Part shown: in pieces, positions 18,001 through 24,000 of the stretch
Position numbering within the stretch: the stretch's first letter is position 1
Layout of the letters: each line of letters starts with the position of its first letter
NCBI RefSeq assembly: GCF_056712565.1
Contig: NZ_CM160072.1
DNA: 64,000 bases
Direction: 5' to 3' (one strand)
Position numbers: made by a program

Positions 18001-21000
18001 TTTTTTTCATCATCAGGTTTATCGACATCAGCAACAGGTTGTGGCTTATCACCTTCCTGTTGTGATGGATCACCAACTGGAGCAGGGTTATCACCTGTAG
18101 GCGCTGACGGTTCTGACGCAGCCGGAGCTGCTCCACCATCGACTGGTTGCTCATTGCAAAGACGGCGATACAGCAAACGCTCAAATAAATTCATGATCAC
18201 TCCTGTTCACTGGCCTCTTTGGCCATCTTCAAATACTGTTCAGGGCAATGCGCCATAACGCGCTGAAACAGTTCCAGCGCCAGATTGCGTTGCCCCTCAT
18301 TAAATGCCATTGCCATAGCGTCCATCGGTGAGATAGCGGAAAACACACGGCCTTTCTCCAGCACCGACCAGACAACGCGACGCCCCTGTTCACTGCTCAT
18401 GACAAAGCGAATGTCATCAATTTCACGCTGCGCCATGTCACGTTGCTTACGGGCGTTTTCTTCTTTCAGTTGATCGTCTTCGTAATCTGTCATTGTGATT
18501 GCCCACCCTGACCACTAACTGCATTCGCCATAGCTGACAAAACACTCGGATCCGAAGTTTTAGCTTCACTTAGCGTCTTGGCACCCTGTGCCGCCGCCAT
18601 CCCCATCGCCATCATTTGTTGCTGCTGTTGTTGCTGTGCCCGTTGCTGGCGAGCCTGCTCAACCTGTTCCTGCGGAACAATGACGGTTGGAGACACTCCG
18701 GACATATCAGCGAATGCATCGATCGCCTGATCAACGTTGAGTTTGTCGAGAGCTTCTGGTTTCGCTTGCGCAAGTTGACCAATGAAGTTAACCGTGGACG
18801 CCAGACTGGACAGGCCGATAGACTTCTGCGCCTGAGCCATGACGGAAATGTATTCGACCTTCAGGGGCATGCCTTCCATCGCGTCAGGCGGTGGCGGCAG
18901 CATGTTTTTACGCACCATCATCGAGAAAGAGCGATCAATGAGAGGATTAAGACATTCGTCGTTCAGGCGCTCCAGAACCGGCCCCAACATCAGAAGTTTT
19001 TCTTCTTTCATTTCGATCACCGCTTCCACAGGCATCGAGCGGGTATTGATGTTCTGCAACATCATGAACAGATCGACAAAGTAGGCGCTGTTAATGATTT
19101 GACGAGTGTCCTGAATGTCTGCCACCAAATCTGCTGTACTGGGGTTAACCAGATAAGCAGGCCTGAAACCATCCTGACCAGTAATCTGATCGATATACGT
19201 GATGTCGCCAGGAAGAAGGGAGGCACGCTGATTCTTGAGGGAAGTCGGAGCAACCATCGGCGGATTGGTGGCTTTATCAATCAACTGCGACTTGCGCTTC
19301 TGGAGAAGCTGCAATGCCTTAACAGGTCCAAGCGCCAGCATACCCGGGCATGATGATCCATAAACATCTTCGCCGTTAACTTCCCAGCGCGGAGCCATAA
19401 TTGGAAACTCATCGAATCCGGACTCACGCAACAACTTGTCGTTATCGCCACCAACCTCGTAATAAACCGATTTGAATGGCTTGTTCTTGCTATCCAGCTT
19501 CGATGTATCGCGGTCAATGTTCGGGTAAACCGAATGCATCACTTCAATCCACTTCTCGTAGGTGCCGCTTTCCCACATGCTTTTTACGGATTCGCTGACG
19601 TTATTTAGCCCGAACTCCTGAACAAGCTGACGAACAGTCATAGAGAACTTGCGAAAACAGGTGTCCACACTGCCACGAGGTGAGTTAGCCAGGTAGTAAC
19701 TGCCTATCGGGAATGGCATTGTGCGAATGATGTCCTCGTCATCCTCCAGCACTGCCATTGCACCAGTGCTGTATGTGCCGAGGCTTCCGTATAACTGCGG
19801 CAGCGACTGATAGAGATTCGACTTATTGAACATATCGTTCATGCGGTTCTGCACCGCCTCAAGCCACAACTTAACAGGGCCATAATCCATCATTTCAGGA
19901 TCTGGCGTAGCCAGGCGAAACCACGGACGCGCGGGGCTTGTGATGCCTGACATCATGCCGCTGGCGAGAGTGCGCGCCGCCATAGTCCCGGTCGAATCAA
20001 TAATGCGTGTATTGCGTCGATCGTTACGGTTGACCTCAGAAGTCAGAAAGCGGGAACCACGCGGGTTGATGTAATCACTCAACTCGCGCCAGTGCGGCTC
20101 GAACGACTGACGCTCGCTTTCAAGTTGTGCGAACTGTTTGTTCAATCGCTCTTTAGTTGTTTCCGCCATTTCAATGACTCCGGTTACTGACCAAGCAGCG
20201 TTTTACCGCTGGTATTAGCGGTTGATGTGTCGCCCTGAGAACCGGTAAGCAGCGTAGAACTACGACCAGCAGCAGCGCGACGGCGACGTGTTTCTTCGTC
20301 GCGGGCATCAACAACGGCGGCATCCTGCTCCTGTGGTGCTGCCTGAACTTCTGGTGTTGCAGGCACTGATGGTGAGCTACCCATGCACATATCAATGACT
20401 CCGTACGCAATTAAATTATTACCAATTTAACCACATATGATTTATTTATCGTAGAAGGTTGACATTTAACGCGTTAATTATTACCTTTCAGGTAACCAAG
20501 AGCTCATTCTGGTTACTAACCTGACTGGCTTGTCGTTAAATTAAACAGGTGGAGTGAGCTTTTATTTTGAGCAGTACGGCGTATGGCACATGCGCCGATA
20601 GCGGTCTGGATACGTTTAAGGGGCACCCTCCCTTGCTCGGGCAAACGAACCAGGTAGCCGGAATGTGCAAGTCGAGCGGTTTTATTCCGCGCACGGGGAT
20701 TCACCATCCCGGCGATTCGGTGTGACGCCTCGGAAGAGACGAGGGTACAACGATGAGAGCATTTATGGAGCCGCGACAAAGTGTGGCGCCTTAACAGGCT
20801 AAGTGCTCTCAGCGTTGTGGCATTAGCTCAGTTGGACAGAGCAACCGCCTTCTAAGCGGTTGGTCGCAGGTTCGAATCCTGCATGCCACGCCAGAATCAC
20901 GCCTAAGGACCGTGATGCCAGAAGTTCCAGGTGCTTGGCGGTGATGGTTTCCCTTGAAGGACTATCACCGCCCTTTTTACAGCAGGACGCCATTGCGATG

Positions 21001-24000
21001 ACTTCATGCTGTAAACCAGTACAGCCACGGAAGGCATAACTCATTGCTTCCAGTTCGCCCGGTTCGCCGGGCATTTTTTAAAGGTGAGATTATGAACGAC
21101 CAGCAAATCGAAAAAGAAATCGTTGAGAAAGGCAAAACGGCACCGCGCGTTACGCCAGACCATATCGAAGGCATTATTGCTCAGGAGGCATATTTCACAG
21201 CAGAAGATGGTGCCTTTGGCAAAGCCATAAAAGCGAAACATACTGGCGGAGAGGTAAACTACCAGCCGCACGAATCACTTTCTCTGCTGACGTTCTGCGT
21301 CCTGGTGCTGCGCAACGGCTTCACCGTCACCGGAGAGAGCGCCTGTGCAAGCCCGGAAAACTTTGATGCGGAAATTGGTCGGGAGATTGCCCGGCAGAAT
21401 GCTGTAAACAAAATCTGGATGCTCGAAGGTTACTTGCTGAAGCAGAAGTTAAGCGAGCAATAACACCGTGACATGTCACAAACAGCCAGCCGATGAGCTG
21501 GCTTTGTTTTATCCTCACCAGAGGATATCAGCAGTATTATCCCCACCAGCGGATTAAGCATAAGGGTCATAATCCGTTATGGCCCTTCCCTGCTGGCTTT
21601 GCTGTCCAGGTATATTTATGCGTTTCGAGACCGGGAAAGCAAACGTCAGCAGTAGCGCATCGCCTTTACCCGGCGAACGCCCAAGCCGCTCCTTGATATC
21701 TTCCTTCGGTTCGATAACGATTTTACCGTCCACACGAACTTTGTACTCTGCCGCCGACAGGTCGTCTGCAGTTTCCTGGTCATCCAGCATGCCGCCGAGC
21801 CTCAGCCATGTCTTGCATGAGTTGAACATCTCCCCACGCTTGTTGAGCATCTGCGGGTCAGTAGACGCGCCACCGAACGGAACAAGTTGCCATGTACGTC
21901 CCCAGCCATCACCGATTGACTTCAAACCGGTTCCGTAACCGAAGTCGATGAACACCGCGTCAGCCTGATACTGGTCTTCAAAGTCAGCGATACGCTTCGC
22001 CATAATCAGATCGTCGGTAGTCTTGTTGCCAGTCCACAGCACCTTACTGTGTAGCCCCTGCCGCAGGTATATCACAGCGTCATCAACGCCGGAGTATGCC
22101 GGGTCAACGCCGATTATCACCGGAGCATGTGCAACCTGCGCAGCGGTTACCACCCGTTTCATTGCCTCGTCAGTAAGACCGGTAGGGATAAACTGCAATT
22201 CAGATGCATCAGGGAATATGCCACGCACACGGATTTTAACGAAGTCGCTGTCTTCCCCGTAGTCATCAACCCATTTCTGCAACTGCTGTTTGTTGGTACC
22301 TTCCACCGTCCGACTGTCAATCTGCGCAGTTTTCCAGCGGTGTTTATACTTGCGGAAACATTCACGGAAACGTCCGGTATTACGTGTAGGGTTTCCGAAC
22401 GCCACCCAAATAATCTCAGTGTCTTCGTCCGTAAGCGCACCCTCGGCAACTTCCCACACCAGATCCGCAATGTTCGACGCTTCATCAAACACCACGATGA
22501 TGCGTTTGCGCTCGTTGTGTAGTCCGGCGAATGCCTCGGTGTTGTGCTCAGACCAGGGTATTGCGTCAGCCCGCCACCGCTTGTCGTGCCCTAGGTCATT
22601 GCTGTACATCGCGGTAGCGGTACAGGTAAACCAGTCTTTCGTGATAGCAAGGTTCGACCACTTGATAATTTCCGGCCAGGTCTTCGTTCGTAGCTGGTTG
22701 TCGGTGTTGGCGGTCACCACGACCTTACAATCCTCGCAAGTGGACATGCCCCAGTTGATCAGCATTGAGATGAATGCGGATTTACCAATACCGTGACCAG
22801 AAGCGCGTGCCAGCATAAGCGGCTGATAGCGCGTCTCTGGATTCTGCAGGTGATCACGTATCTCTCGGAACGCATCAGCCTGCCACTGACGTGGGCCGGT
22901 GGCATGTGCCAGTTCAGTCCCCTCTTCCCCCCATGGGAACGCATAGAGGGCATAGCCAAGCGGATCGTGAGTGAACCCTGCAATATCCTCGATTAACTGC
23001 TCTTCAGGAGATAACGCTGTATCTGTCACTGATTGCCATCCTGACGTTCTTTCAGTCTCTTCCTGGCTGCCGCTATGCGATCAGCAATTGTCACATTCAC
23101 ATTAACATCCAGGCGTTCTTTGAATGCGTTGACGTCGACGTGCTTACCAATCAGTTCGAGGTTCTTCACCTTGTCAGGCCATTTAATTTTTTTGAGGATT
23201 GTCTCTATCGAATCCTCGTTCATGTTCATGATGGTCGATGACAGATCAAAGCCACTAAGCGTAGTGCGCCAGATTTTCGGCCACTCGCGGATTGGCTTAA
23301 GGCTCCCATCGTCGTTGAGGATGTCGATCACGTCCATCTGGTCGATCTCCACCAGGCGCATGAGAACGTAATCAGCACTGACGCGCATTCGTTTGTTGCG
23401 CTCCTCCATCAACTCGGCAATCCGTTTTTGAATGCGTTCATCGCGCATCATGACACTGGCTTTAACTGCCGCTGTATTTGGGGAGAATCCTGCGTTAATC
23501 GCTGCCTGAGTCTGGTTTTCAGGCGTTTTGATGTATGACTGGCAATAAGCCTCCTGCATTGCTGTTAGTGGCTTAAATTGCGTTGATTTGCGTTTATAGG
23601 TTTTAGGTTCAGCAGGCATCATAACCACCGTGGTAATAGTTACCGTTGTGGTAATAGTACCATGCAAAATAAAGCCGCCATAGTTGGCGGCAGTATTCAA
23701 AGTCCATCAAATTCATCGTAAAAACTCTCGTCAAGATACCCTTCCCATTTACCGCGAATGAAAATTACATCCTCGCCGCAAGGGTGCTGACTGTCGATAA
23801 CTATATCCCTCCTGGCGCAACCATACTTATGCATGAGAAATTTAACCTCTTTCGGAAAATTTGCTGAGTTATCTCTCATATCTTCAAGGTCGTAGCGTAT
23901 TTTTGGCATAACACCTTCGTGACATGTCACACTATTAATTTCGTTTCATGCCAGCCTTTGGTCACCCAGCATTGCGAGTCACCATTACACGGGCATGAAT

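Follow-up and report, generated by a model that had tools for sequence, protein, structure and literature searches.

The window analysed here, a 64,000-nucleotide (nt) stretch of contig NZ_CM160072.1 (NCBI RefSeq assembly GCF_056712565.1), carries a phiV10/epsilon15-like prophage in which opposite-strand DNA separates terL from the homologue of the epsilon15 gene gp3. The main conserved feature of this DNA is a structured RNA of about 245 nt on the plus strand (20576-20820), which we call the leader RNA and which was overlooked in an earlier note on the same interval. That note had described a tRNA-Arg(UCU) and a moron cassette; the tRNA and the accessory open reading frame (ORF) are ordinary, and both already carry annotation in records of related phages, the tRNA in several GenBank entries. 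The real interest of the region is the unannotated leader RNA and its terminator-adaptor architecture, which reach far beyond the Uetakeviruses. The RNA is absent from Rfam 15 and from RefSeq annotation, yet is found in about one-third of complete Escherichia coli genomes, in the classic phage P1, in Shiga-toxin (Stx)- and cdt-converting phages and in the O104:H4 outbreak strain. We give about an even chance to its being a cis-acting antitermination leader that would drive the tRNA and a terminator-insulated cargo gene.

A pseudoknotted RNA folded on the plus strand

The roughly 420 nt between gp3 and the tRNA are unannotated in every record. They contain the following elements.

20576-20820, plus strand: leader RNA, ~245 nt, pseudoknotted (covariation across copies)
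20576-20744, plus strand: 5′ core of the leader (alignments and covariation scan)
20577-84/20590-97, plus strand: helix P1, loop GGCAC (covariation)
20605-09/20650-54, plus strand: helix P2, enclosing the variable hairpin P3 (covariation)
20653-71, plus strand: near-invariant 19-mer GGTAGCCGGAATGTGCAAG (alignment)
20696-99/20707-10, plus strand: helix P4 (covariation)
20702-05/20719-22, plus strand: pseudoknot CACC/GGTG (covariation)
20728-32/20740-44, plus strand: helix P5, loop GAAGAGA (covariation)
20754-61/20804-11, plus strand: closing helix P6, with a variable insert (compensatory variants)
20754-20820, plus strand: 3′ module, made up of P6, the boxA-like UGCUCUC (20804-10) and GTTGTGG (20814-20)

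In an alignment of 12 copies, invariant blocks alternate with variable hairpins that carry compensatory changes, and the median pairwise identity of 108 unique copies is 57%. Support for the helices comes from an all-against-all covariation scan and a formal pair count, for which nhmmer and direct counting of pairs sufficed. Across a 61-sequence alignment, helix cells are paired in 96.2% of cases, against 30-52% when the partners are slid, and 15 of 26 helix pairs are changed on both sides; none of 500 shuffles reaches the observed values. Within the helices G.U is far commoner than A.C (202 against 6), identifying the plus-strand RNA as the strand that folds and arguing against a DNA-level or minus-strand element. 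The leader RNA is thus real and folded on the plus strand. P6 carries compensatory variants and is followed by GTTGTGG in 87 of 118 unique copies, which sets the full length at about 245 nt. Although its sequence is not conserved, the segment between the P2 strands can form at least 4 base pairs in 59 of 61 copies. The 19-mer GGTAGCCGGAATGTGCAAG occurs once in the window. Among 57 new unique copies sampled through an independent P1/J1-2 anchor it is exact in 51, and 5 differ by one or two bases, indicating that its invariance is not a sampling artefact.

Other explanations for the conservation were rejected. A small conserved protein gene is incompatible with core lengths of 145-174 nt that fall in all mod-3 classes, with no universally open frame and no three-base periodicity. 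Long-range pairs proposed by RNAalifold (GCACAT 20586-91 with ATGTGC 20663-68) lie in invariant columns and compete with the covariation-backed P1, and we leave them as a possible tertiary contact. Apart from the tRNA, Rfam 15 gives no match at E<=1 in window 19500-22500, and none at the element in 18 diverse loci at the gathering threshold, though other families were detected there; no Rfam family (including GOLLD, ROOL, C4, isrK, riboswitches and ribozymes) matches it. No prior description of the leader was found in the literature searched, which did not cover the P1 genome paper.

Distribution across enterobacterial phages

A sensitive search with 20391-20816 recovers Uetakeviruses together with unrelated phages at about 80% identity over 20576-20738/20816. 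The latter include P1, P7, D6 and SJ46, the lambdoid phages cdtI, mEp460, 2H10 and mEp390, Stx2a and Stx2c phages, a Klebsiella Lastavirus and a Stenotrophomonas phage. The 19-mer is present in at least 120 IMG/VR contigs. By sensitive blastn the leader is found in 1843 of 5426 complete E. coli genomes (34%) at 1-4 copies each, including O104:H4 C227-11 and O157:H7; 553 of its places are on plasmids, which are P1-like phage-plasmids, and in the E. coli RefSeq genomes it is never annotated. Among one-genome-per-species representatives the exact 19-mer is confined to Enterobacterales (10 genera), plus two tiny contigs of metagenome-assembled genomes that are probably mis-binned. An origin from a host core-genome RNA was rejected: there is no core homologue, and the leader is always in accessory DNA.

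Promoter-proximal, co-oriented contexts

Across the family the leader tends to open a transcription unit. In 59 of ~134 loci the same strand carries a cI-like repressor gene about 200 nt before the leader, and the first large downstream ORF is co-oriented with the leader in 79 of 102; most exceptions are Uetakevirus loci, which have a small co-oriented cargo ORF followed by convergent terL. Phage cdtI gives the clearest arrangement: cI and its terminator are followed by a near-consensus promoter (TTGACA-16-CATAAT) flanked by repeats that match the operator of the OR region, the leader begins about 45 nt after this early-left promoter (PL)-like site, and it is followed by the early-left operon, of which yfdP-like, yfdQ and yfdR-like genes come first. 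Promoter-like sites also lie upstream of the leader in mEp390 (~45 nt) and the Stenotrophomonas phage (~115 nt). cdtI has a Q-like gene and no annotated N. A 2025 study of lambdoid phages reports that phage LLS has no N homologue and that its early-left operon starts with yfdP/yfdQ/yfdR homologues, the same genes that open this operon in cdtI. In P1, SJ46 and D6 the leader core begins about 17 nt after a tRNA(CAU) and precedes ban. tRNA-Arg(UCU) follows the leader in 31 loci, at 7 different spacings.

On the early-right promoter (PR) side of the cdtI immunity region we also observe a C4 antisense RNA (68 bits) beside isrK (60 bits), together at 277-465 on the minus strand, a P1-type immI-like module in a lambdoid phage.

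Within the window, the leader is preceded by a candidate divergent control region, in which 20393-20495 is conserved across Uetakeviruses (83-85% identity to SPN9TCW, Tyrion and epsilon15). Here lie a perfect -35 element (TTGACA, 20459-20464) with a weak -10, and an operator-like inverted repeat, GGTAACCA-N11-TGGTTACT, at 20491-20517; the corresponding stretch of the epsilon15 record bears annotated repressor and IHF sites. From these features we infer that 20391-20575 holds the promoter and operator of the plus-strand unit and of the minus-strand gp3-portal operon, with 20459-20517 a possible repressor-controlled divergent promoter region.

A boxA-like 3′ module

The boxA consensus of nut and rrn antitermination sites is YGCUCUU(U)A. 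The leader 3′ module reads RTGCTCT(T/C), with the canonical TGCTCTTT in many copies and the canonical boxA forms GTGCTCTTTC and GCGCTCTTTC in many family members; the variant in the window, UGCUCUCAG (20804-12, also written TGCTCTCAG), departs from the consensus and is a weaker form. The GTTGTGG that follows at 20814-20 overlaps the first 4 nt of the tRNA.

The module also stands alone. A scan for GTTGTGGTGAATGC finds it in contigs without the core; it is widespread in viral contigs and present in ST64B, in the order boxA-like sequence, GTTGTGGTGAA and a covarying hairpin (TGCGCA-GGCTGA-TGCGCA or TGCACA...TGTGCA). The loci collected contain 139 unique boxA..GTTGTRR modules, against about 5 expected by chance, and holins, yfdP-like and gp49/66-like genes lie downstream of modules. 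A classical N-nut pair was rejected, because no arginine-rich N-like ORF follows the module in 40 loci. tRNAs directly upstream of the stand-alone modules were also rejected: ARAGORN finds none, despite T-arm-like strings visible by eye.

ST64B is cited as the closest relative of the LLS early-left region. A profile search finds no match to the leader 5′ core in ST64B, and its 815-nt cI-sb37 leader ends in the same 3′ module. The ST64B leader (~27565-27960, minus strand) is different and GC-rich, with the similar words GTAGCCAGTGCAAG and TTAGCGG ahead of the P6/GTTGTGGTGAATGCG module, and may represent a second, distantly related core type.

Further variation is seen around the module. Copies without the tRNA (L352, L363 and similar loci) keep GTGG...CCACGNCA and the same downstream hairpin, CAGAATCACGC..GTGAT (compare 20814-20916 in the window), so that the acceptor-stem ends are seemingly retained around a non-tRNA insert, which could be a tRNA-like remnant or a minihelix. 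Three loci (L246, L266 and L205) each carry two GTTGTGGTGAATGC modules 500-655 nt apart on the same strand, with differing hairpin types, GCGCAGGCTGATGCGC and GCGGCTCAGCGCACGCGG.

Cargo bounded by terminators

The insert is ordered as control region, leader RNA, tRNA-Arg(UCU), hairpins and terminators with a Shine-Dalgarno (SD) sequence, cargo ORF and a final terminator. Its parts other than the leader are as follows.

20391-20575, no strand assigned: candidate divergent control region (from sequence)
20817-20893, plus strand: tRNA-Arg(UCU) with encoded CCA (ARAGORN, anticodon tct at position 35; Rfam tRNA model, 73.3 bits against a gathering score of 29)
20896-20916, plus strand: small hairpin (inverted repeat)
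20937-20972, plus strand: terminator T1, followed by CUUUUU (terminator scan)
20976-21015, plus strand: hairpin H (inverted repeat)
21057-21072, plus strand: terminator T2, followed by AUUUUUU, U-run to 21079 (terminator scan)
21083-21088, plus strand: cargo SD, AGGTGA (sequence)
21092-21463, plus strand: cargo ORF of 123 amino acids, PF13876 Phage_gp49_66 (N4 gp49/Sf6 gp66 family), full-length domain (118.9 bits against 27, 1.4e-34)
21484-21503, no strand assigned (found on the plus strand): hairpin terminator T3, between the convergent cargo ORF and terL

Both the plus-strand tRNA and the 123-residue ORF described in the earlier note are confirmed by these searches. Its two intrinsic terminators exist too, as part of a larger set of three plus-strand hairpins (T1, T2 and T3). 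The region holds four terminator-like sites, against 1.8 +/- 1.2 in shuffles. T3 is annotated in phiV10 as the terL terminator and is probably bidirectional. The hairpin block 20896-21079 is kept in relatives with and without the tRNA (TL-2011b, SPN9TCW, Tyrion and epsilon15).

The cargo ORF belongs to PHROG 322, a family of unknown function, and contains no AGA or AGG codons. A promoter scan finds no promoter for it upstream on the plus strand. T2 ends at 21079, the SD occupies 21083-88 and the ATG is at 21092; these 12 nt leave no room for a promoter of the ORF's own, and the view of it as a self-contained moron fails on this point.

The junction of T2 and the SD, GGGCATTTTTT(T/A)AAGGTGA-N4-9-ATG, forms an adaptor that recurs at 53 sites ahead of 9 unrelated cargo families, with a covarying T2 stem. 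This sample is biased to core-containing loci, and a separate scan was therefore anchored on the adaptor itself. Among the 97 unique sites with enough upstream sequence, 85 (88%) have the leader 5′ core within 800 nt upstream, 4 have only the boxA-GTTGT module and 8 have neither. Some of these 8 come after another ORF and look like second members of tandem cargo arrays. Tandem cargos each have their own adaptor, as processive antitermination predicts.

An old insertion with an exchangeable ORF

The earlier note had about 1.4 kb of opposite-strand DNA splitting terL from the portal gene. The segment is real, but 207 nt of it are the native minus-strand gp3 gene, leaving an opposite-strand or non-coding insert of about 1.16 kb (20391-21553) that lies between terL and the gp3 homologue and not directly against portal. 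Comparison with relatives lacking the insert, as proposed there, points to an insertion. Pseudomonas phage Ab31, Vibrio phage 1.021.A and Ralstonia phage DU_RP_II share the order terS-terL-gp3-portal-protease-capsid, and their terL and gp3 are contiguous on one strand with gaps of 11, 44 and 140 nt, respectively, which marks the opposite-strand segment as a derived insertion.

Opposite-strand DNA occupies this slot in every enterobacterial Uetakevirus examined, with varying contents: phiV10, TL-2011b and SPN9TCW have a tRNA in the slot, and Tyrion and epsilon15 do not. The conserved module is carried by all the close relatives (phiV10, TL-2011b, ZX5, PAS61, SPN1S-like and Klebsiella phages), the observation that the earlier note had named as counting against a transplanted cassette. 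That idea survives in part: there is an insertion relative to distant phages, and its ORF can be swapped, but the module is family-wide in close relatives and neither recent nor specific to this prophage. Judged from these genome comparisons, the insertion is genuine but old and lineage-wide among enterobacterial Uetakeviruses, and would have been gained between terL and gp3 by an ancestor of the epsilon15/phiV10-like phages.

Breakpoint mapping locates the exchangeable part. TL-2011b is 98.6% identical over 20101-21079, up to the last base of the T2 U-run, carries an unrelated ORF, and regains identity from 21484, the first base of T3; SPN9TCW and Tyrion behave likewise. In the relatives compared, the ORF is the sole part swapped, bounded exactly by T2 and by T3, the right recombination boundary of the cargo.

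Two relatives differ further within the slot. In epsilon15 a deletion corresponding to 20611-20943 takes out the tRNA and most of the leader RNA; only the first ~56 nt (the P1 region) remain (2764-2862), and the deletion then runs up to T1. A site annotated 'RNaseIII' in epsilon15 overlaps this remnant on the opposite strand. The slot of Enterobacter phage Tyrion holds another structured RNA, int-alpA (5146-5210, plus strand; Rfam, 44 bits against 35.8), with a cargo ORF on one side and a DUF551 gene on the other.

The tRNA and codon usage

Arginyl-tRNA synthetase recognizes the identity elements A20, C35, U/G36 and A/G73. The tRNA in the window, the only one that ARAGORN finds in the 64 kb, has A20, C35, U36 and G73 by sequence and alignment; these are the features of an Arg-UCU isoacceptor, and the tRNA is predicted to be aminoacylated.

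The codon-usage check proposed in the earlier note came out as expected there. Counting over heuristically called ORFs, AGA makes up 5.7 of every 1000 codons in prophage ORFs and 2.05 in flanking host ORFs (2.8-fold; odds ratio 2.8, p ~1e-4), and AGG 3.3 and 1.6, respectively (odds ratio 2.1, p 0.02). The AGA excess sits in early and accessory genes, with 3-6 AGA in each replication gene, and AGA is absent from capsid, scaffold, portal and the cargo ORF. The densest AGA in the prophage is in a 210-codon ORF (3160-3792, plus strand, 9 AGA) in a region that differs from phiV10. This pattern fits codon supplementation for a subset of genes, with a modest effect; the tRNA would supply AGA decoding to AGA-rich early and accessory genes.

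Proposed antitermination and competing interpretations

We propose that the plus-strand segment is an accessory opposite-strand transcription unit whose leader would act in cis on the RNA polymerase transcribing it, through processive antitermination. The leader might work alone, as HK022 put does, or with host Nus factors recruited via the boxA-like tail, as nut and rrn leaders do. The modified polymerase would escape Rho over the untranslated stretch of ~520 nt that comprises the RNA and the tRNA, and would pass T1 and T2 into the cargo. Polymerases that had started elsewhere would be halted by T1 and T2, so that the cargo would be expressed only from the leader's own promoter. The occurrence of 88% of independently sampled T2-SD adaptors downstream of a leader core supports this proposal.

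More tentatively, and with the chances somewhat against it, the leader may be the founding member of a new class of phage RNA that reprograms host RNA polymerase without a phage protein. It would combine a put-like core with a boxA tail, serve early antitermination in N-less lambdoid prophages (including Stx, cdt and O104:H4 prophages) and be reused in podophages and P1-like phage-plasmids as a platform for tRNAs and insulated genes. If the leader does antiterminate, it would answer the question, present in the 2025 literature, of how N-less lambdoid phages express their early-left operons, and would bear on prophage induction in pathogens. Placed as it is before nine unrelated cargo families, the adaptor of terminator and SD would make a compact, naturally occurring "insulated expression cassette" that could serve engineering.

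Known antitermination systems offer partial parallels. Lambda nut sites and rrn leaders signal through boxA, boxB and boxC with NusB, NusE, NusA and NusG. The leader resembles them in its 3′ module, where a boxA-like sequence is followed by the GU-rich GTTGTGG tract and, in copies without the tRNA, a covarying hairpin, and in its place at the head of long units that are untranslated or contain terminators and, like rrn operons, include a tRNA. It differs in that the boxA of the window is the weaker variant TGCTCTCAG and is paired within P6, that no N-like arginine-rich gene follows, that the window has a tRNA in place of the hairpin, and that the boxA is preceded by a large structured 5′ core with no counterpart in nut and rrn sites.

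The putL and putR RNAs of HK022 are cis-acting, protein-independent processive antiterminators (PMC9378689). Like them, the leader is a structured phage RNA; in N-less lambdoids it lies just past a PL-like promoter, with terminators downstream, and its restriction to enterobacterial phages would fit binding to a conserved surface of host RNA polymerase. Unlike put, which is ~70 nt with two stems and lies just downstream of both early promoters, the leader is ~245 nt with at least five helices and a pseudoknot, is single with no copy at PR, has a boxA-like tail, and occurs beside tRNAs, in P1 and in podophage structural modules. The leader as a homologue of put was rejected, there being no sequence, structural or profile similarity.

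Several observations weigh against antitermination. Neither blastn nor nhmmer finds a significant match to the leader anywhere in HK022. No intrinsic terminator was detected downstream of the leader in the O104:H4 prophage or mEp390, and a universal downstream terminator was rejected; our terminator finder was noisy. Each genome has a single copy, and a search for a divergent second one near PR found none. The P1 copy lies mid-operon and lacks the 3′ module. epsilon15 has lost the tRNA and most of the leader but keeps T1, T2 and the ORF. The boxA variant of the window departs from the consensus, its strand takes part in P6, a covarying helix, and its resemblance to boxA could be due to chance. 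A promoter scanner reports no site above threshold in the control region, and the AGA enrichment is modest and missing from the most highly expressed structural genes. The association of leader and adaptor could also reflect a cassette inherited as a unit, not functional dependence.

The chief rival, unlikely in our estimation but to be taken seriously, is a stable, processed, trans-acting non-coding RNA (ncRNA) with a host-takeover, anti-defence or catalytic role, whose ends would be cut by tRNA-processing enzymes and for which the terminators would simply end the RNA and tRNA gene. In 31 loci the last bases of the leader are also the first of tRNA-Arg, and in P1, D6 and SJ46 the leader starts ~17 nt after tRNA(CAU), so that RNase P or 3′ processing would release it. 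T1 comes 44 nt after the tRNA, and neither a terminator nor a cargo adaptor adjoins the P1 copy. The leader has sharp conserved 5′ and 3′ ends across very different contexts, and its near-invariant unpaired nucleotides and pseudoknot recall ribozymes and protein-binding RNAs. There is also a precedent in GOLLD and ROOL, which are large, ornate phage-associated RNAs of ~580-800 nt (PMC5737381). The leader is likewise a complex RNA with a pseudoknot and no assigned function that is carried by prophages, often beside tRNAs, but it is 245 nt long, has no Rfam match, is restricted to Enterobacterales and has a consistent promoter-proximal, co-oriented position. As the first RNA made from PL upon induction, it would, if trans-acting, be a new abundant phage ncRNA. 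A trans-acting role leaves unexplained why cargo ORFs sit directly behind terminators with no promoter, why adaptor terminators are coupled to the leader at 88%, why there is a boxA-like tail and why the leader opens the PL early-left operon of N-less phages; about 100 of 134 copies, moreover, have no adjacent tRNA.

A conditional switch, similar to a riboswitch or attenuator, that senses a metabolite, ion, uncharged tRNA or protein and gates the tRNA and cargo or the early-left operon is distinctly improbable. A 5′-leader position, a multi-helix junction with highly conserved unpaired bases and a downstream series of hairpins and terminators that could form alternative structures would all suit such a switch. 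However, the terminators lie 120-240 nt past the conserved core with a tRNA or other hairpins between, which leaves no overlapping expression platform, the leader is larger than most aptamers, and the downstream genes are unrelated (nine cargo families, yfdPQR, ban and holins), with no common ligand logic apparent.

We regard as very improbable the view of the earlier note, in which an ordinary tRNA and a self-contained moron follow 420 nt that merely provide a promoter and leader with no function of their own. Morons are additional genes, each equipped with a promoter and a terminator, that separate neighbours which adjoin in relatives. The insert does lie between such neighbours; it has a cargo that varies among close relatives and is followed by the terminator T3, and its tRNA, like other phage tRNA-Arg(UCU), matches a codon enriched in the phage. 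In contrast to a moron, the cargo lacks its own promoter and is preceded by two terminators, the module is family-wide rather than a recent transplant, and the conserved part is the upstream platform of RNA, tRNA and terminators, common to lambdoid and P1-like phages. The region upstream of the tRNA is the most conserved and most widespread part, with compensatory changes across ~57%-identical copies in unrelated phages, and for the RNA this covariation already contradicts the view.

Least probable is an element for mRNA or tRNA processing or stability (an RNase III, E or P entry site or a protective 5′ structure) that sets half-life and not elongation: an annotated RNase III site lies on the opposite strand of the homologous region in epsilon15, stable 5′ structures do protect transcripts and the leader is adjacent to tRNAs, but its long near-invariant unpaired stretches and pseudoknot exceed what a nuclease site or protective hairpin needs, and the coupling to terminator adaptors stays unexplained.

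The prophage and its native flanking genes

The prophage occupies window positions ~1-34,900, as mapped against the phiV10 genome, and the segment region is 95.5% identical over its full length to phiV10 and related O157 typing phages. It ends at an exact attachment (att) core, ATTGAGTGGGAATGATT, at 34894-34910, the attP reported for the phiV10, epsilon15 and ZX5 group, which integrates at the 3′ end of guaA (PMC9782041). The native genes around the insert are as follows.

18490-20169, minus strand: portal (PF12236)
20184-20390, minus strand: homologue of epsilon15 gp3 and phiV10 p06, 68 amino acids, 207 nt (ORF call; PHROG 831 at 2e-36; annotated homologues)
21554-23029, minus strand: terL (ORF call and Pfam scan)
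23026-23700, minus strand: terS (ORF call and Pfam scan)

The gp3 homologue adjoins terL in the distant Ab31, Vibrio and Ralstonia phages; it is a native small gene of the structural module and forms the left edge of the insert. An 83-residue ORF antisense to the tRNA and T1 (20823-21074, minus strand), annotated as a coding sequence in phiV10 (PhiV10p04) and TL-2011b (gp24), has no Pfam match and lies across the tRNA gene and hairpins that are conserved; it probably represents a false gene call. Because the window begins within the prophage, the second att junction falls outside it.

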